Sequence record: NC_028927.1
DNA from: Escherichia phage slur02
Length of the DNA stretch: 64,000 bases
Direction: 5' to 3' (one strand)
In this document: positions 15,919-38,104 of the stretch, piece after piece
Layout: the number at the start of each line of letters is the position of its first letter
Position numbering within the stretch: position 1 is the first letter of the stretch
Notes under the pieces: model-generated
Databases searched by the model: none
Seen by the model: the letters and a program-made list of their open reading frames with translations, nothing else
What the model was told of the DNA's origin: nothing
Translations under genes and position numbers: made by a program

Positions 15919-16389
15919 TTAATCATGTTTCCACACCCCATCGGTATTTGACCAAAGTCGCTGATTATCTGATCCTCGCCACAGCTTTTTAGTCGGAAGA
16001 TTTTTCTCATACTTCCCATCAATAATAACATCAACATATTTAAGCATTTCTAGTTGTTTAATATCTTCAAACTTATATCCTGTCCACAACCAAATGCTTT
16101 TATTGGGATAAAGATTTTTTACTGTTTGAACCACAGAGTGAATCACATCTCTGTTATCAGGATAAAGAGGGTCACCCCCAGTTATAGTTAATCCTTCTAT
16201 ATAATCATTATTCAAACATTCAATTAATTGTTCTAGTGTTTCACCAGTGAATGGAACACCATTTCTAGCATTCCATGTTGATTTATTATAACACCCTTCG
16301 CATTTATGCAAACAACCCGTAACGAAAAGAACGACCCTGCAACCAGGGCCATTCACAAAATCGCAAGGATAAAATCTATCATAATTCAT
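15919..16389 (-). CDS. nrdG: anaerobic ribonucleotide reductase activase NrdG
   Basis: 156 aa; radical-SAM CxxxCxxC (CLHKCEGC); overlaps nrdD stop. Confidence 0.9.
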   Translation of the reverse strand: MNYDRFYPCDFVNGPGCRVVLFVTGCLHKCEGCYNKSTWNARNGVPFTGETLEQLIECLNNDYIEGLTITGGDPLYPDNRDVIHSVVQTVKNLYPNKSIWLWTGYKFEDIKQLEMLKYVDVIIDGKYEKNLPTKKLWRGSDNQRLWSNTDGVWKHD

Positions 16390-18203
16390 TGGTGTTTAAC
16401 CCTATGCATGATTTCTTTATTTTTACCGAGATTAAATCCGCGTTCGTTCGGATTTCCCAAATAACCACATGTTCTTCTTATTGTGTTCATCTTTTTAGGA
16501 TCAGTTTCTCCACAGATAGAACAAACAAATCCGTTTTCAGTAGGAGTCATTTCATGGGTACTTCCGCATGTAAAACATTTATCTACTGGCATATTAACAC
16601 CAAAATAATCTAAATGTTGTGCAGCATAATCCCAGACGGCCTCAAGCCCCTTTAAATTGTTTTTCATATCAGGAAGTTCAACATAAGAAATGTGACCACC
16701 TGTCGCAATGAAATGATATGGCGCTTCACGAGAAATCTTTTCAAACGGAGTAATATTTTCTTCTACTGAAACATGGAAACTGTTAGTGTACCAGCCTTTA
16801 TCGGTAACATCCTTTACATTTCCGTATTTTTCTGTATCGAGTTTACAGAAGCGATAACAAAGGTTTTCAGCAGGAGTAGAATATAAACTAAAAGCAAATC
16901 CGGTTCTTTCAGTCCACTGTTTAAGATGAGCATTCATTTTAGTTAAAATTTCTCGTCCAATATCACGACCGACAAGAATATTCAATTCGTGAATACCAAT
17001 GTATCCTAAAGACACTGAACTTCTACCGTTTTTAAATAACTCAATTATGTCGTCATCAGGTTTAAGACGAACCCCGAATGCACCTTCTTGGTAAAGAATA
17101 GGAGCAACAGTTGCTTTAACTCCTTTTAAGGAACTAATTCTACACATCAAAGCTTCAAAACATAAATCCATTCGTTCATTGAACAATTCGATAAATTTCT
17201 GTTCATTGAACTGTGTTCCAATATAAGAATCTAATGCGATACGAGGAAGATTCAGTGTTACAACACCGAGATTATTACGTCCATCAAGAATTTCATTGCC
17301 AGTCGAATCTTTCCATACGCCCAAGAAACTACGGCAACCCATTGGAGAAACAGGAACAGATGAACCAGTGATAGCTTTATTATTCTTAGCTGAAATAATA
17401 TCAGGATACATCCTTTTGCTTGCGCACTCTAGAGCAAGTTGCTTAATGTCGTAATTCGGATCGTCTTTATAAAGATTAACGCCTTCTTCAACGAACATAA
17501 CAAGCTTAGGGAAAATAGGAGTTATTCCATCACGACCAAGACCTTTAATACGATTTTTCAGAATTGCTTTCTGAATCATTCGTTCAGTCCAGTCAGTTCC
17601 CGTACCAAATGTAATTGTTACAAAAGGAGTTTGTCCGTTTGAACTAAAGAGAGTATTTACTTCATATTCATAAGCTTGGAATGCATCGTATACGTCTTTT
17701 TCTGTTTTAGATTGAGCATAATTCAGTGCATCGGCGATTTGCCATTTTTCTGCATCCTCAATATGTTTTGCATAGGTGCGTTTAACATAAGGAGAAAGTA
17801 CTTTATCTACATTCGCAAAAGTCGTTCCGCCGTATTGGTGAGAAGCAACCTGTGCAGTAATTTGTGCCATAATTGCAGTAGCAACTCCAATTGATTTAGG
17901 AGTTTCAATCTGTGCATTACCAAGCTTAAATCCGTTCTCAAGCATTCCTTTTAAATCTACTAAACAGCAATTAGTAAATGGAAGAGCAGGGGAATAATCA
18001 ATATCATGGAAATGAATAATTCCGCTTTCATGCGCTTTCATAATAAAAGACGGGACCATATTTTTGGCAATGTGTTTAGACACAATACCAGCCATAAGGT
18101 CCCGTTGAGTTGGAAAAACACGAGAATCTTTATTAGCATTCTCGTTTAAAAGGTCTTTATTAGTTTTATGAATCAATCCTTCAATTTCTTTTTCAATTGT
18201 CAT
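16386..18203 (-). CDS. nrdD: anaerobic ribonucleotide reductase NrdD, uninterrupted
   Basis: 605 aa contiguous; glycyl-radical motif RTCGYLG near C-terminus; C-terminal Cys cluster. Confidence 0.95.
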   Translation of the reverse strand: MTIEKEIEGLIHKTNKDLLNENANKDSRVFPTQRDLMAGIVSKHIAKNMVPSFIMKAHESGIIHFHDIDYSPALPFTNCCLVDLKGMLENGFKLGNAQIETPKSIGVATAIMAQITAQVASHQYGGTTFANVDKVLSPYVKRTYAKHIEDAEKWQIADALNYAQSKTEKDVYDAFQAYEYEVNTLFSSNGQTPFVTITFGTGTDWTERMIQKAILKNRIKGLGRDGITPIFPKLVMFVEEGVNLYKDDPNYDIKQLALECASKRMYPDIISAKNNKAITGSSVPVSPMGCRSFLGVWKDSTGNEILDGRNNLGVVTLNLPRIALDSYIGTQFNEQKFIELFNERMDLCFEALMCRISSLKGVKATVAPILYQEGAFGVRLKPDDDIIELFKNGRSSVSLGYIGIHELNILVGRDIGREILTKMNAHLKQWTERTGFAFSLYSTPAENLCYRFCKLDTEKYGNVKDVTDKGWYTNSFHVSVEENITPFEKISREAPYHFIATGGHISYVELPDMKNNLKGLEAVWDYAAQHLDYFGVNMPVDKCFTCGSTHEMTPTENGFVCSICGETDPKKMNTIRRTCGYLGNPNERGFNLGKNKEIMHRVKHQ

Positions 18204-32683: not shown

Positions 32684-32886
32684 GTAACCTTTAAGCAATA
32701 TTCTTCTACATGTTGTTTACGACCTTTCTTATCAATAAAGGTATATTCAACGAATGTTCCAATGTAGTCTTTATCTACATCATGTGGACTATTAATTGGA
32801 CATTTAGTACGGCAAATGCGTTCCCATTGACGAATAATTACTGCTTTGTTTTTAGGATCAAACGGATGTGGGTAATGCACTTTCAT
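32674..32886 (-). CDS. hypothetical protein (tk.3 position)
   Basis: 70-aa ORF. Confidence 0.45.
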   Translation of the reverse strand: MKVHYPHPFDPKNKAVIIRQWERICRTKCPINSPHDVDKDYIGTFVEYTFIDKKGRKQHVEEYCLKVTWL

Positions 32887-33337
32887 AATCCACCACTATT
32901 AAATCAATATCAGGAGTAAACATGTCGATTAATTTAGAAACCTTATCCCAATCGCCGCCAGCAATACCACAACCTATGCGTGGAATGTAAATTACCGGTT
33001 TAAACAAAAGGGTTTCTGCCTGTAGATTTAATTCTATCATGCAGTTTACTAAAGCACCATAATCAAGATTAGGACCTGGTTCGTATTGCGTATACAGGTT
33101 ATAGCATATACCAAAACCATTAGGTTTATGTTTAAAAACAATAGACATATCGCCTAATTTATCACGAGAACCGTACTCAGTAGTGGTTTTATCTATTTCT
33201 AAAATTTTGGGATAGGCTCTTGCTAATTGACCAGCTACACCTGAACCCATAGTATGAAAACAATTGCACCCGTGCGCAATAATATTACCTTGAAGAAATA
33301 GGGCGACAATATCGCCCTTGATATATTTTACAATCAT
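32858..33337 (-). CDS. macro-domain protein (ADP-ribose binding/processing)
   Basis: 159 aa; GDIVA...IIAHGCNCFHTMGSGVAGQLA resembles macro-domain Gly-rich loops. Confidence 0.55.
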   Translation of the reverse strand: MIVKYIKGDIVALFLQGNIIAHGCNCFHTMGSGVAGQLARAYPKILEIDKTTTEYGSRDKLGDMSIVFKHKPNGFGICYNLYTQYEPGPNLDYGALVNCMIELNLQAETLLFKPVIYIPRIGCGIAGGDWDKVSKLIDMFTPDIDLIVVDYESALPTSV

Positions 33338-33675
33338 CTAGTACTCAATCCTCGATTATAAGAATCTACCAAACGGTCAACCATTGAATGACAAGCGGCT
33401 TTATCTTTCTCCTCCGCAACTGAACATTCTAAGGTATTCCACTTTTTAGCATATCGTTTTAACAATGTATCATTTTTGTATCTGCTTGATTTATCTCTTT
33501 CTCCGTCTTTATATGCATATATTAATTTCTGCGCAAATTCAGCTTGGCATGCTTTATTTTTCCCGCAATAATCCGCTGCAGTACGGTTTACATACTCTCT
33601 AATTTCAGTATATGATGTATCTGCTAACGCAGAAAATGAAATTAATCCTATACATAAAACCAAAATTTTAGTCAT
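33334..33675 (-). CDS. secreted protein with signal peptide (vs position)
   Basis: 113 aa; N-terminal MTKILVLCIGLISFSALA. Confidence 0.45.
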   Translation of the reverse strand: MTKILVLCIGLISFSALADTSYTEIREYVNRTAADYCGKNKACQAEFAQKLIYAYKDGERDKSSRYKNDTLLKRYAKKWNTLECSVAEEKDKAACHSMVDRLVDSYNRGLSTR

Positions 33676-34213
33676 TTACTATTTCCAAAAGTTTATTATT
33701 TTTAAGGTAATTAGCCTTTTCTAGGACTTCAGAAGCATATTTAGAACCTGCTTTAACATTCCATCCCGAATTATAAGAGGATATTGCTTTTCTTATATCG
33801 CCCTTATGTATATTTAACCAATAAGAAAGTTCAATGTACGCCCAGGAAGCTGAATTGGACCGTTTATTCAACATTCTTTTTATTTCAGCATCGGTCATAT
33901 TATAACCAAGTTCCTTAACTCTTGCTCGCATAGTAGGCAAATAATTTTGGAACATTCCGTAGGCGTGATGCTTTGCTTTAGATTTTAAATTAACTCCGCC
34001 AGAGCTTTCTTGCCATAAAATAGCAGCCATTATATGACCCAATCCGCTCTTGTGGATATTTTTGTGTGTTTTATATTTTCCATCCTTAGAAAATTGTTCC
34101 CCGAATTGATACGCGTAACGCATGTTATCGAGTTGGACATTACTGAAAGTATGCTCGGAGCTATGTGCCATCATTGAAATGGCCAATAGACCAGCGAGTA
34201 GTGCTTTTCTCAT
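33668..34213 (-). CDS. soluble lytic transglycosylase-like periplasmic protein (vs.1 position)
   Basis: 181 aa; signal peptide; SLT motifs QESSGG and AYGMFQ. Confidence 0.55.
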   Translation of the reverse strand: MRKALLAGLLAISMMAHSSEHTFSNVQLDNMRYAYQFGEQFSKDGKYKTHKNIHKSGLGHIMAAILWQESSGGVNLKSKAKHHAYGMFQNYLPTMRARVKELGYNMTDAEIKRMLNKRSNSASWAYIELSYWLNIHKGDIRKAISSYNSGWNVKAGSKYASEVLEKANYLKNNKLLEIVND

Positions 34214-34220
34214 GCTTACC

Positions 34221-34682
34221 TCATTGAGTTTTAATTACTGCTTTAGAAGCCTTTCCTGGTAAACGACGACTGTTGATAATTGCCATCCTGCATTGAAGTG
34301 ACGGGTCTTTGAACTTCTCATTAGGCTTACAAACCGTAAATCCAAGCCAAAGATTTCCATCTGTGATTTCTAAACGTCCAGGACGATATTCAACCCCATC
34401 AATAAAATCCTCGTCAATGTCAGGACGCGGAGGCATACTCAGGAATTCATTAACTTCTAAAACATGGTCTTTTATTTTATGGAATAATTCAAAAACATAT
34501 GTCTCATCAATCTCCCGTTGAATTGCACGATCAAGAAGATGTTGAGAATATTTTAGATGAAACGATGAGACTCCTGCTGCTTTTGATGCCTCACGAATCT
34601 CATTGTTAATTTGACGAAACTCCGACTCAAAGTGACGACGAAGCTTATTTCGACGGATAAAAACTTCTGTATTGATAGTCAT
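34221..34682 (-). CDS. regB: endoribonuclease RegB
   Basis: 153 aa; T4 regB size/position; early promoter upstream. Confidence 0.85.
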   Translation of the reverse strand: MTINTEVFIRRNKLRRHFESEFRQINNEIREASKAAGVSSFHLKYSQHLLDRAIQREIDETYVFELFHKIKDHVLEVNEFLSMPPRPDIDEDFIDGVEYRPGRLEITDGNLWLGFTVCKPNEKFKDPSLQCRMAIINSRRLPGKASKAVIKTQ

Positions 34683-34707
34683 GTTGTTCTCCTCTTAACT
34701 GATAGAA

Positions 34708-34742
34708 AAATTATACCACAGTCAAGAGGAAAAGTAAACAGT
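34708..34742 (-). promoter_or_regulatory. T4-type early promoter (regB)
   Basis: GTTTAC (34734-34739), spacer, TGTGGTATAATT. Confidence 0.6.
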
Positions 34743-35020
34743 TATTCTTTAAATCTAATCAATTTATTCATAGACTTTGAAACTTCTGCACGAACCTCAT
34801 GTAAGTTTTTAAGCTGTTCAAGACGCTGCTCATAGTAAGCAATTTCATCTTCTTCGAGACAGTCCTGTGAATCTTCTTTAAGATAGCGTGCATAGTCCTG
34901 GAAAGCTTTACGGACTACTTCCTGGAAGTCATCAAGACTTTGAATTTTCTTAGGAGCGGCAGATACACGACGAGGGGCAGTATAATACTCATAACCAAAC
35001 CCTGCACTTAATTGAGCCAT
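34742..35020 (-). CDS. hypothetical protein (vs.3 position)
   Basis: ORF 34742-35062, start likely internal Met. Confidence 0.45.
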
Positions 35021-35322
35021 TAGTATTTTTCCTCTGGTTGGAACACAGCACGGCAAGCCCACATACTTGCTTCTTTGAGTTTCGTTTTAGCAATAGTTAA
35101 CTGATCGAGGCTTTCGGCGTAATTCTTCGCGAGTTCATCATCTTCACAGCTATCAAATGCTTCCCAGAATTCATCGTATAAAGCGTCAAAGATAAGTCCT
35201 AAACGAACTTCAGCGTCTTTGATAGCATTCACTTTACCGATTTTCTCTTCAGTATGCGGCTTATAACCTTTAATGTCTTCAATCATATTTGACTTCCTCA
35301 CCAGTACATAAATCGTATTCAA
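35020..35322 (-). CDS. hypothetical protein (vs.4 position; candidate Acb2-like nucleotide sponge)
   Basis: 100-aa ORF at the position of T4 vs.4; sequence identity to Acb2 not verified. Confidence 0.4.
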
Positions 35323-35500
35323 CTAAACGAATAGGTTCATGAATGCCATATCCCTGAACAGAAATTTCTGTAGTAGGATAAATTCCATCAATATCACCCA
35401 TATTCCAGGCTTCGTTAAATTGCTGTTCGCCTGAATTACTAAACCACTCGGCGAAAGCATTTAGCACATCTTTAGAACCTTCAATAATTATCTTTGCCAT
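35279..35500 (-). CDS. hypothetical protein (vs.5 position)
   Basis: 73-aa ORF. Confidence 0.45.
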   Translation of the reverse strand: MAKIIIEGSKDVLNAFAEWFSNSGEQQFNEAWNMGDIDGIYPTTEISVQGYGIHEPIRLVEYDLCTGEEVKYD

Positions 35501-35862
35501 TATAAGCTCTCAGTAAAGGTACGAGCAATAACGTCGCGCTGCTGTTCCGGAGTCAGAGAGTTAAAGCGAACTGCATAACCGGATACACGGATGGTCAGCT
35601 GCGGATATTTTTCCGGATGCTTAACTGCATCTTCCAGAGTTTCACGACGCAGAACGTTAACGTTCAGGTGTTGACCACCTTCAATTTTAACTGTAGGCTG
35701 TGGCTCAATTTCAATTTCACGAGCATGCAAACCGTAGAAAATTTCTGGGTCTACAAAAGAGTCCTCTTTAAAGGTTTTAGAGACAATAATTCGTGCTTGA
35801 ATACCATCTTCAAAATAAATAGTACCTTTATGTGTGCCTTCAAGAATTTGATATGCTTTCAT
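35500..35862 (-). CDS. GrcA/YfiD-like glycyl-radical spare-part protein
   Basis: 120 aa; C-terminal [25 protein letters not shown] resembles the glycyl-radical motif of E. coli GrcA. Confidence 0.65.
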
Positions 35863-35869
35863 ATAAACC

Positions 35870-36196
35870 TCAATTAGAAAATAAATTTATCCAAGATTGT
35901 TCTTTAATTAAAAATGGCTCAGAATCATATGCCATTAAACTTTGGGTGATTAGTCCTTTAAAAGGTCCATCAATAAATTCCATGGTAAAATATGGAATTT
36001 TATTCATTAACTGTGCGTTAGGAGCAGTGCACAAAACTCTGCATCCTTTGAATACACCTTTTTGTAATTTGTATTGCTTGGGATAAAATTCGCTTAAAAT
36101 GTTGTTATTTGCCAAAATTTCAAAATGATTTACCAATTTATTTTTAATAGTTTTTGGCGAAAAATAGAGATATTCGAAAAGCTGTGTGTCTGTCAT
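35870..36196 (-). CDS. hypothetical protein (vs.7 position)
   Basis: ORF 35870-36250, start likely internal Met. Confidence 0.45.
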
Positions 36197-36735
36197 TATT
36201 GCATTCCGATTACGAAAAACTGTGGACGAGTAATACCACCAATGCAACATTTACTATTACAGCAGTAGTGTACAGTGTCAATATGGACGCTATAAATCTT
36301 ATCCATATCAGGAGATTTGACAGGCTCATCAATTATATACAAAATTCGCGAAAGCGATAAACCTCTGAACTTGCTTCCTTTATTACCAATAAAACTGCGT
36401 ACAGAATCAGTAAATAAACGAAAACGTATATCATCATTAGAATAACGCGAAAATTCCTTTTTAATGTTATTTGCAGAAATTTTAGCGTAAGCTGAAGTAT
36501 TAGAAAGAACAATAACTGTTCCGCCATCATACAGCCAATTAGCAGCAAAGTTAGTCACAGCAATTGATTTACCAGATTGACGTCCACCATCTATACGAAG
36601 TGTGCAGTACTGTTTAAGTAATTCTTCAAATGGCGGGATATATTCGTTTTTACAAATTTCTTCTACTCTAGCATCAGAATGGTGTGTAAAAGCATTCATC
36701 AGGGATAGATACGGGCCAGTTAAAAATGTTCTCAT
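36196..36735 (-). CDS. hypothetical protein (vs.8 position)
   Basis: ORF 36196-36792, start likely ATG 36733-36735. Confidence 0.45.
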   Translation of the reverse strand: MRTFLTGPYLSLMNAFTHHSDARVEEICKNEYIPPFEELLKQYCTLRIDGGRQSGKSIAVTNFAANWLYDGGTVIVLSNTSAYAKISANNIKKEFSRYSNDDIRFRLFTDSVRSFIGNKGSKFRGLSLSRILYIIDEPVKSPDMDKIYSVHIDTVHYCCNSKCCIGGITRPQFFVIGMQ

Positions 36736-36870
36736 ATTTTCTCTCTTAATTTTTGGGCCATTCCATGGCACATGAGTTGTCCATTCCTGCATTACCCATT
36801 ACCGCGCTTTGGCTCGACCTTATCACAGGTTGGCGGGAATACCTCAAATGAGGTCCAGGCTGTTCCCATA

Positions 36871-37344
36871 TTATTTGAACGATTTAACGTACTGAATAGA
36901 ACCTTTACTATTTACAAAGGCAATTTTACCATTTTTATTATACATGGTAGCAGTACGTTGATAACCATAAGTTTGTTTACCAGATTGATAACCAACTAAT
37001 GCGAAATTATCTTCGCCCATTTTATTCTGTTTAGCGCGAATGCGTTCATGACCATGTGCCATAAGAACCTTAGCATCACCGGTTGCAATGGATCGACGAG
37101 TTTTTTCATCTTCAACTGTATTAACAAAGTCGTCAAATGAATCAAATTTAGCATGAGATTTATTATACAGTTTTCCATCTACTGCATAATTATATCCCTG
37201 TACATCCATCTCAACTTCTGTACCATCATCCAATACAGCAGTGATTTTTTGACCTTTTTTAAATTTCAAAAGATCAGTAAAAGATTCAGCAATAATTTGA
37301 GAATTAATAGCTGCTTCAGTGATAAATTCTTGATATGTTTTCAT
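36871..37344 (-). CDS. internal-protein-like packaged protein with capsid-targeting N-terminus
   Basis: 157 aa; N-terminus MKTYQEFITEAA matches the CTS recalled for T4 internal proteins (MKTYQEFIAE); AGGAA RBS. Confidence 0.55.
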   Translation of the reverse strand: MKTYQEFITEAAINSQIIAESFTDLLKFKKGQKITAVLDDGTEVEMDVQGYNYAVDGKLYNKSHAKFDSFDDFVNTVEDEKTRRSIATGDAKVLMAHGHERIRAKQNKMGEDNFALVGYQSGKQTYGYQRTATMYNKNGKIAFVNSKGSIQYVKSFK

Positions 37345-37360
37345 ATGATTCCTTTAATTT

Positions 37361-37678
37361 TTATTCTTTAGGAAAATTTTTAGAATATGCGTCGTAAAGC
37401 TTATTTCCAATACGACGAAAAACTCTAGCTGCAAAACGATTTTCTGGGTTTTTAATCATAATTTGCATCATATAAGTACCCGCGTCTGAAAGAGCTTCTT
37501 CATAGTACCCGTTAATTTCTTTAAGAGTCCTACGTTTACCACCAGGACCATCAACAGTGATTTTCCATTTACCTGTAGAAGTGCGACTCGGCGGCTCAAC
37601 TTGTTCAATCCAAATATAACCGCCTTCTACACGTTGTCCTGCAGCAGATTCTGCAATAAATTCTTGATATGTTTTCAT
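37361..37678 (-). CDS. internal-protein-like packaged protein with capsid-targeting N-terminus
   Basis: 105 aa; N-terminus MKTYQEFIAESA; basic; directly downstream of denV. Confidence 0.55.
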   Translation of the reverse strand: MKTYQEFIAESAAGQRVEGGYIWIEQVEPPSRTSTGKWKITVDGPGGKRRTLKEINGYYEEALSDAGTYMMQIMIKNPENRFAARVFRRIGNKLYDAYSKNFPKE

Positions 37679-37687
37679 ATGTTTCCT

Positions 37688-38104
37688 TTAAATGTAAATA
37701 TTTTTACCGTAATACTTATACCAATGTGGTTTCATTAAAATTTTTTCATCAAGTCGTTGTTGACTCAATTTAATAGCTGATTTGCATGGATTATAATCAT
37801 TTTTCCATTCTACTGGAATATCGCTGATGTCAGGAACTTCAGTATCTTTTATACTGAACCCTCGTTTTAAGCATTCCGTTATAATGTCTAATTGACGCTT
37901 TCGCAAAAATTCTAACTTATCGTAAAAGAACGTAACATGACCAGAACCTAAAATAAACTCGGAAGATATTTTAAAATCTTTAACGCGCTTACCGTTTGCC
38001 ACATGCTTACGAACTATACCAAAAACACGTGGCAATTCACGGTATTCTGCGATTAAATGTTGATCAGCAAGTTCAGATACTAAAGTCAAATTAATACGAG
38101 TCAT
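37688..38104 (-). CDS. denV: endonuclease V (pyrimidine-dimer DNA glycosylase)
   Basis: 138 aa; matches T4 DenV as recalled ([17 protein letters not shown]...). Confidence 0.93.

Follow-up and report, generated by a model that had tools for sequence, protein, structure and literature searches.

A 64,000-nt stretch of the Escherichia phage slur02 genome (NC_028927.1; hereafter the window) carries at 33334-36792, on the minus strand, the genes vs, vs.1, regB, vs.3, vs.4, vs.5, vs.6, vs.7, and vs.8, collinear with those of T4. A megablast search with window 33000-37400 as the query matched 890 phage records, of which the best was Escherichia phage slur04 (Tequatrovirus; 100% identity over the full query). 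According to the RefSeq annotation, the minus-strand order tk, tk.1-tk.4, vs, vs.1, regB, vs.3-vs.8 is common to slur04 and T4 (NC_000866). An initial annotation, made from the letters alone, had described a GrcA-like glycyl-radical protein, an SLT-like enzyme, and an open reading frame (ORF) at the position of T4 vs.4 (Acb2) in this cluster. All of the ORFs that it named are present on the minus strand at the coordinates given, with 35020-35322 being a maximal TTG-initiated frame; the span of 33334-36792 does cover vs to vs.8, although vs.8 probably starts at 36735 and not at 36792. Protein comparison with T4 gave 180/181 identical residues for Vs.1 (99.4%), 84/88 for Vs.4 (95%), and 119/120 for Vs.6. 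The features considered first are the following.

33668..34213, minus strand: vs.1, predicted exported SLT/GH23-fold lytic transglycosylase, 181 aa; candidate catalytic Glu E69, codon 34007-34009
35020..35286, minus strand: vs.4, Acb2-family cyclic-oligonucleotide sponge directed against the cyclic-oligonucleotide-based antiphage signaling system (anti-CBASS), 88 aa, ATG at 35286
35500..35862, minus strand: vs.6 (Y06I), GrcA-like autonomous glycyl-radical "spare part", 120 aa
35510..35684, minus strand: host-identical tract in vs.6, gene nt 179-353, codons 60-118, covering the structured glycyl-radical domain

We regard the region, with considerable confidence, as a conserved early accessory block (vs-vs.1-regB-vs.3...vs.8) of Tequatrovirus that brings together three separate functions and is not one system: a spare part for pyruvate formate-lyase (PFL) in Vs.6, a sponge in Vs.4, and an exported protein in Vs.1, the 3' half of vs.6 having been overwritten with host sequence.

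Vs.6 and its host-identical tract

Vs.6 is encoded by a small stand-alone ORF with its own Shine-Dalgarno (SD) sequence and start codon, situated between vs.7 and vs.5, and has no catalytic barrel. It differs from T4 Vs.6 only at residue 73, which is arginine in this phage and histidine in T4. The protein matches Pfam Gly_radical (E 2.8e-18), a match of vs.6 already noted by Nolan et al. 2006 (PMC1524935), and E. coli GrcA in PDB 6OWR (E 8.6e-42). Its residues 58-120 align with residues 697-759 of PflB (E 5e-26, about 85% identical) and its C-terminal 61 residues are identical to those of E. coli GrcA. The C-terminus is as the initial annotation quoted it, and the GrcA-like identity proposed there is upheld by the 6OWR, PflB, and Gly_radical matches. 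When properly aligned, Vs.6 does have the radical glycine: G95 (codon 35578-35580), within RVSGYAVRF, is aligned with the radical glycine of GrcA and PflB. Vs.6 and GrcA/YfiD have the same two-part layout, in which a variable N-terminal half is followed by the structured radical domain; compared with bacterial GrcA, the N-terminal half of Vs.6 is 7 residues shorter.

PMC8683613 (citing Wagner 2001) names Y06I and YfiD as the sole two spare part proteins that have been validated; the PFL activating enzyme (PFL-AE) activates each of them, and they restore the activity of oxygen-cleaved PFL. By analogy with the T4 orthologue, G95 of Vs.6 would receive the glycyl radical from the host activase PflA, and Vs.6 would insert into oxygen-cleaved host PFL, replacing the lost C-terminal radical domain. 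The rescued PFL would then again supply acetyl-CoA, ATP, and formate in microaerobic hosts.

At the DNA level, the tract that encodes the radical domain is 174/175 nt identical to E. coli grcA both in the window and in T4. A blastn search of the vs.6 gene against 5,426 complete E. coli genomes matched grcA in each of them at 95-99% identity (97.8% in the best matches listed), the match covering only gene nt 179-363. In a three-way alignment both ends of the tract have sharp boundaries: identity is at background level (~45%) upstream of codon 60, and the similarity ends at the stop codon. The last 10 nt of vs.6 carry phage-specific variants and seemingly lie outside the tract. The base composition changes within the gene as well, with a GC content of about 0.47-0.49 in the 3' part (0.41 at third codon positions, GC3) and of 0.345 in the 5' half (GC3 0.20). 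When the whole 64-kb window was compared with the E. coli genomes by megablast, the tract was the only match found in every one of the 5,426; the remaining match shown was a tRNA-Tyr segment, 89% identical, on a plasmid record of E. coli (in all, 219 places on plasmids at 80-90% identity).

The E. coli block lies inside the enterobacterial grcA series, its identity being 92.8% to that of Citrobacter amalonaticus and at most 92% to the rest. The phage block reaches only 90.6% identity with its nearest non-Escherichia grcA and is nearer to E. coli than any non-Escherichia species is. Because the E. coli block fits the enterobacterial series and the phage block is closest to E. coli, the direction of transfer, judged from these sequence comparisons, is from host to phage.

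The tract was also compared among ten sampled alleles from Tequatrovirus and Mosigvirus. Each has 0-4 differences from E. coli over the 175 positions; these are nearly all private, and none is fixed between the two genera. The adjoining 177-nt 5' half, by contrast, shows 17-25 differences between the genera (10-14%; Fisher p about 9e-5 for one pair). Across phage records, identity to the E. coli block is bimodal.

Identity of at least 95%: 637 phage records
Identity of 90-95%: 8 phage records
Identity of 80-90%: 298 phage records
Identity of 60-80%: 566 phage records

That the tract stays near-identical across two genera whose 5' halves are 10-14% apart suggests gene conversion templated by the host, either recent or recurrent. 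An old, diverged phage homologue of grcA would have had its codons 60-118 overwritten by E. coli grcA, recently or repeatedly; this overwriting would have occurred after the split of Tequatrovirus and Mosigvirus, or repeatedly since then, and it would keep the phage radical domain matched to the PFL and activase of the host. Purifying selection on an ancient phage gene might leave a similar near-identity, as might an error of assembly or contamination, given that the domain is extremely conserved at the protein level (80-100% to E. coli GrcA in all phage lineages) and the segment is short at 175 nt. We give these two explanations a negligible probability. Synonymous sites are identical too: among 60 codons for the same amino acids, 57 are the E. 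coli codon here and 34 in Pseudotevenvirus, in which the same 60 residues are encoded. The GC content of 0.47 and GC3 of 0.41 are host-like when set against the 0.345 and 0.20 of the 5' half, the boundaries are sharp, and 637 phage genomes sequenced independently, the T4 reference among them, have the tract at 95% identity or more, which rules out an artefact.

Inside the cell, T-even phages readily undergo recombination with short pieces of homologous DNA, as in T4 marker rescue. Continuing homogenisation against host grcA is plausible on that ground, and we tentatively consider that the radical half may be held identical to the current host grcA by ongoing, homology-driven conversion from the host chromosome, in the manner of marker rescue. 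The conversion may extend to Klebsiella phages, with a tract GC resembling that of Klebsiella and Enterobacter: in the Klebsiella-phage relatives the GC content is 0.55-0.56 in the tract (host-like) and 0.37-0.38 in the 5' half.

Vs.6 and the phage ribonucleotide reductase

The window also encodes a class III ribonucleotide reductase (RNR), itself a glycyl-radical enzyme, and its activase.

15919..16389, minus strand: nrdG, class III RNR activase; Pfam Fer4_12 (E 4e-49) and Radical_SAM
16386..18203, minus strand: nrdD, class III RNR; Pfam NRDD (E 5e-171), radical site IRRTCG580YLG

The initial annotation placed nrdD 18 kb from the GrcA-like gene and proposed a functional link, to be examined as rescue of cleaved NrdD. 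The measured distance of 17.3 kb agrees with this, and both genes lie inside one large early-gene region. Direct rescue is not supported by the nature of the domain, which is of the PFL/GrcA type and has no detectable similarity to the NrdD radical site. BLASTP of Vs.6 against the NrdD of the window returned no significant alignment, the best (E 2.7) lying away from the radical site. Moreover, the NrdD radical loop IRRTCG580YLG comes after a Zn-ribbon, whereas the loop of Vs.6 is IRVSG95YAVRF. Vs.6 is therefore a module of the PFL type and is unlikely to stand in directly for the radical domain of NrdD.

In its strongest form the repair proposal makes Vs.6 a spare part for the phage class III RNR, supplying a new radical domain after O2 cleavage of NrdD at G580 and perhaps activated by NrdG. 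Both are glycyl-radical proteins of one phage, and spare parts for further glycyl-radical enzymes are still considered open in reviews. The genomic neighbourhood in other phages also lends it something. In the Salmonella jumbo phage SE_PL (MT001829.1 199880-202527) a GrcA-like gene lies between nrdD and nrdG in a tight operon, its stop codon overlapping the nrdG start, and in Krischvirus a grcA-like gene adjoins nrdC. The SE_PL operon is the only gene-neighbourhood evidence seen that ties a phage spare-part protein to class III RNR. Even there, however, the GrcA-like protein is of the PFL type, and T5-like phages carry the gene without nrdD nearby (in one of them it lies among tRNA genes). The idea that grcA-like genes generally neighbour nrdD was therefore rejected: the arrangement is seen in SE_PL, it is missing in the T5-like phage, and the two genes are 17 kb apart here, a spacing within one early-gene region that is no evidence of a link. 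Together with the missing BLASTP match at the radical site, the different loop, a radical domain that equals that of E. coli GrcA and has about 85% identity to PflB 697-759, and the reported rescue of PFL by T4 Y06I with PFL-AE (PMC8683613, citing Wagner 2001), this makes NrdD repair highly improbable.

A connection of another kind is plausible. PMC4493059 (citing Mulliez 1995) gives formate as the source of reducing equivalents for class III RNR and discusses a formate site for T4 NrdD. Since PFL makes formate, the reductant of NrdD, an indirect metabolic route from PFL through formate to NrdD is plausible, and it gains some support from the nrdD-grcA-like-nrdG operon of SE_PL. Any link between Vs.6 and NrdD would then be metabolic, through formate, and not one of direct repair. 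The idea of connecting the two is not new, as a role of vs.6 in nucleotide metabolism was already speculated on by Nolan et al. 2006 (PMC1524935).

Vs.4, Vs.1, and the rest of the block

The initial annotation left the identity of the ORF at the vs.4 position undecided. It is an Acb2-family gene: the protein matches Pfam PF24729 Acb2_Tad1_hairpin (E 1.2e-19; 70.6 bits, cut-off 27), PDB 7UQ2 ("Vs.4"; E 1.7e-53), and PHROG 717 (E 6e-32), in keeping with its 84/88 identity to T4 Vs.4, and its position between vs.3 and vs.5 is the same as in T4. The upper coordinate of 35322 lies 36 nt too far, and the TTG that opens this 100-aa maximal frame is not the real start. The start is placed at the ATG at 35286, which is the annotated one, because it is preceded by a GAGGAAG SD sequence and gives a product of 88 aa, as long as T4 Vs.4 and the crystallised protein.

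The T4 Vs.4 hexamer binds three molecules of cyclic GMP-AMP (cGAMP; Kd about 30 nM) and acts against CBASS (Jenson et al. 2023, PMC10097602), and a T4 Vs.4 knockout is about 50-fold more sensitive to CBASS (PMC10097602). The cGAMP-contact residues are Y8, F82, H11, K23, R79, and S74, and the interface or stability residues are L29, F33, A66, A73, A77, T12, and L60 (PMC10097602). All 13 are conserved in the Vs.4 of the window, whose four substitutions relative to T4 (L44F, N46S, C50D, and F52L) fall between the two helices, away from the functional residues. By analogy with T4, a Vs.4 hexamer would sequester 3'3'-cGAMP and so blunt CBASS defence.

For Vs.1, the signal-like N-terminus and the SLT motifs that the initial annotation had reported both hold. 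The N-terminus (MRKALLAGLLAISMMAHS followed by SE) resembles a signal peptide, and the match to Pfam SLT PF01464 over residues 61-154 is marginal and above the cut-off (25.4 bits against 21.3; E 1.1e-5). The SLT likeness had already been suggested, as a marginal match, by Nolan et al. 2006 (PMC1524935). With phmmer, Vs.1 had no match among PDB sequences, so structure prediction and a fold search were used. The AlphaFold model has a predicted local distance difference test (pLDDT) score of 87.7, and its top Foldseek matches are MltD and Slt, at modest E values of 0.009-0.07; the model has a lysozyme-like alpha-helical fold that can be superposed on known lytic transglycosylases. Within the family, for which 77 homologues were collected and 34 aligned, down to 41% identity, no variation is seen in E69 (in W-Q-E-S), G86-x-F88-Q89, or Y147-N148-x-G150, conservation of S70 is 90% or higher, and the hydrophobic signal-like N-terminus is kept. 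We take E69-S, GxFQ, and YNxG to be the counterparts of the family-1 lytic transglycosylase motifs ES, GLMQ, and AYNAG. Vs.1 has the ES, GxxQ, and YNxG motifs in common with Slt70, MltC, MltE, MltF, and EtgA, although its identity to the cellular family 1 enzymes is only 13-20%. Unlike these, it consists of a single domain (~160 aa) that stands alone, has a signal peptide that looks cleavable, and lacks a lipobox and accessory domains.

The SLT-like assignment of Vs.1 is sound. The protein would be exported by the Sec pathway to the periplasm, where its SLT/GH23 domain, with the predicted catalytic residue E69, would cleave the glycan strands of peptidoglycan. It might instead be an inert lysozyme-fold binder or decoy in the periplasm, or a cytoplasmic protein with a hydrophobic N-terminus, in which case peptidoglycan would not be cleaved. 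The marginal Pfam score and the Foldseek E values leave room for this, T4 already has the gp5 and gpe lysozymes, and the literature that could be searched yielded no experiment on Vs.1. Against it, E69, GxFQ, and YNxG are retained without exception in 34 homologues and the signal-like N-terminus throughout the family, and we consider an inert or cytoplasmic Vs.1 unlikely.

The remaining genes of the block are as follows.

33334..33675, minus strand: vs, "valyl-tRNA synthetase modifier", 113 aa; 97% to T4 Vs; PHROG 1256 (E 5e-40)
34221..34682, minus strand: regB, sequence-specific endoribonuclease, 153 aa; 100% to T4 RegB; Pfam REGB_T4 (E 8e-69)
34742..35020, minus strand: vs.3, 92 aa; 97% to T4 Vs.3; PHROG 2037
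35279..35500, minus strand: vs.5, 73 aa, intact form; full-length PHROG 1986 match (E 1e-43)
35870..36196, minus strand: vs.7, 108 aa; 98% to T4 Vs.7; PHROG 2049
36196..36735, minus strand: vs.8, P-loop NTPase-like, 179 aa; 98% to T4 Vs.8 residues 41-219; PHROG 1488

RegB shows no difference from T4 over its 153 aa. Vs.3 is labelled "Endoribonuclease RegB T4-bacteriophage encoded" in the slur04 RefSeq and GenBank records, an error that has propagated to several others; Vs.3 has no RegB Pfam match. In the T4 reference, vs.5 (58 aa) has a 1-nt deletion after codon 17 that is a frameshift relative to the 73-aa form in the window, and on sequence grounds the T4 annotation probably represents a frameshifted or mis-sequenced gene. 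Vs.8 contains a Walker A motif (GGRQSGKS) and a Walker B-like motif (YIIDE) and weakly matches the terminase-large ATPase PHROG 2. The 40-aa N-terminal extension of T4 Vs.8 is out of frame here, which places the conserved vs.8 start at 36735. In a promoter and terminator scan, promoter-like counts equalled the shuffled expectation.

Vs has a Sec-type signal-peptide-like N-terminus (MTKILVLCIGLISFSALA followed by DT), which is unexpected in a protein credited with acting on a cytoplasmic synthetase. The mature part contains four cysteines (C37, C43, C84, and C95); in a small family alignment every full-length homologue retains C37, C84, and C95, and one has serine in place of C43. The vs start overlaps the stop of vs.1, whose product is predicted to be exported. 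In a 2025 preprint, vs is the T4 gene most strongly depleted in minimal medium.

On one side of the block lies a homologue of tk.4 (window 32858-33337) that encodes a macro-domain protein 57% identical to T4 Tk.4, its neighbours being 95-100% identical. T4 tk.4 has recently been named adfM, an anti-DarTG2 factor (bioRxiv 10.1101/2025.11.20.689424), and the homologue here is, by this comparison, a divergent anti-defence allele next to acb2. On the other side, the ORFs 36871-37344 and 37361-37678 both start with MKTYQEFI(T/A)E..., like the T4 internal proteins IPII and IPIII, and past this start have little or no relation to them. In the T4 internal proteins, such a start is the capsid-targeting sequence. 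The two ORFs lie between vs.8 and denV, whereas T4 ipII and ipIII lie between denV and e; ORF 37361-37678 is labelled "hypothetical" in RefSeq. DenV (window 37688-38104) is 78% identical to T4 DenV, and the flanking e (lysozyme) is 97% identical. The denV gene is thus a further locally divergent segment, adjoining rearranged internal-protein genes.

Weight and meaning of the findings

The reading of the block as a spare part, a sponge, and an exported protein, with host DNA inside vs.6, has to be balanced against several points. In an NCBIfam search of the cluster ORFs only Vs.6 had a match, and it falls below the GrcA equivalog TIGR04365 (153.3 bits against a cut-off of 170, over residues 20-120 only). 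The shortfall comes from the N-terminal half, where identity to GrcA is only ~35%, albeit with homology still evident (E 5e-6); by these alignments Vs.6 is a phage-type GrcA homologue and not a strict equivalog. According to PMC8683613, YfiD has a disordered N-terminal half, yet this half contributes to the binding of cleaved PFL and to activation, so the binding or regulation of Vs.6 could differ. The biochemistry of Vs.6 and Vs.4 is carried over from the T4 orthologues, and catalysis and export of Vs.1 are predicted. As for the tract, a single capture followed by phage-to-phage spread may fit the same data as conversion recurring from the host. For the tracts of the Klebsiella phages, the search for a near-identical bacterial donor reached at best a match of 161/175, among 80 loci without K. 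pneumoniae.

Vs.6/Y06I, Vs.4/Acb2, and the SLT-like Vs.1 have already been published for T4 (Wagner 2001; Nolan 2006; Jenson 2023), and the copies described here are near-identical. The practical value of identifying the cluster lies in annotation, including a correction of the vs.4 start to 35286. In the slur04 RefSeq record, Vs.1 and Vs.4 are labelled "hypothetical protein". No earlier account of the vs.6 mosaic at the DNA level was found in the searchable literature, beyond whose reach lie key subscription papers, and the host-identical tract is the only element of the region that might repay further work.

The tract points to strictly lytic T-even phages having taken up host sequence recently or recurrently. 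It also suggests that an exact match to the PFL and activase of the host is required of the spare part. Both ideas bear on how auxiliary metabolic genes are maintained. If conversion from the host chromosome is indeed ongoing, the radical domain would, in coliphages of different genera, stay suited at all times to E. coli PFL and PflA, leaving the phage-specific N-terminal half free to diverge. Few cases are documented in which an auxiliary metabolic gene of a lytic phage goes on being homogenised with host sequence, and this would be one of them.

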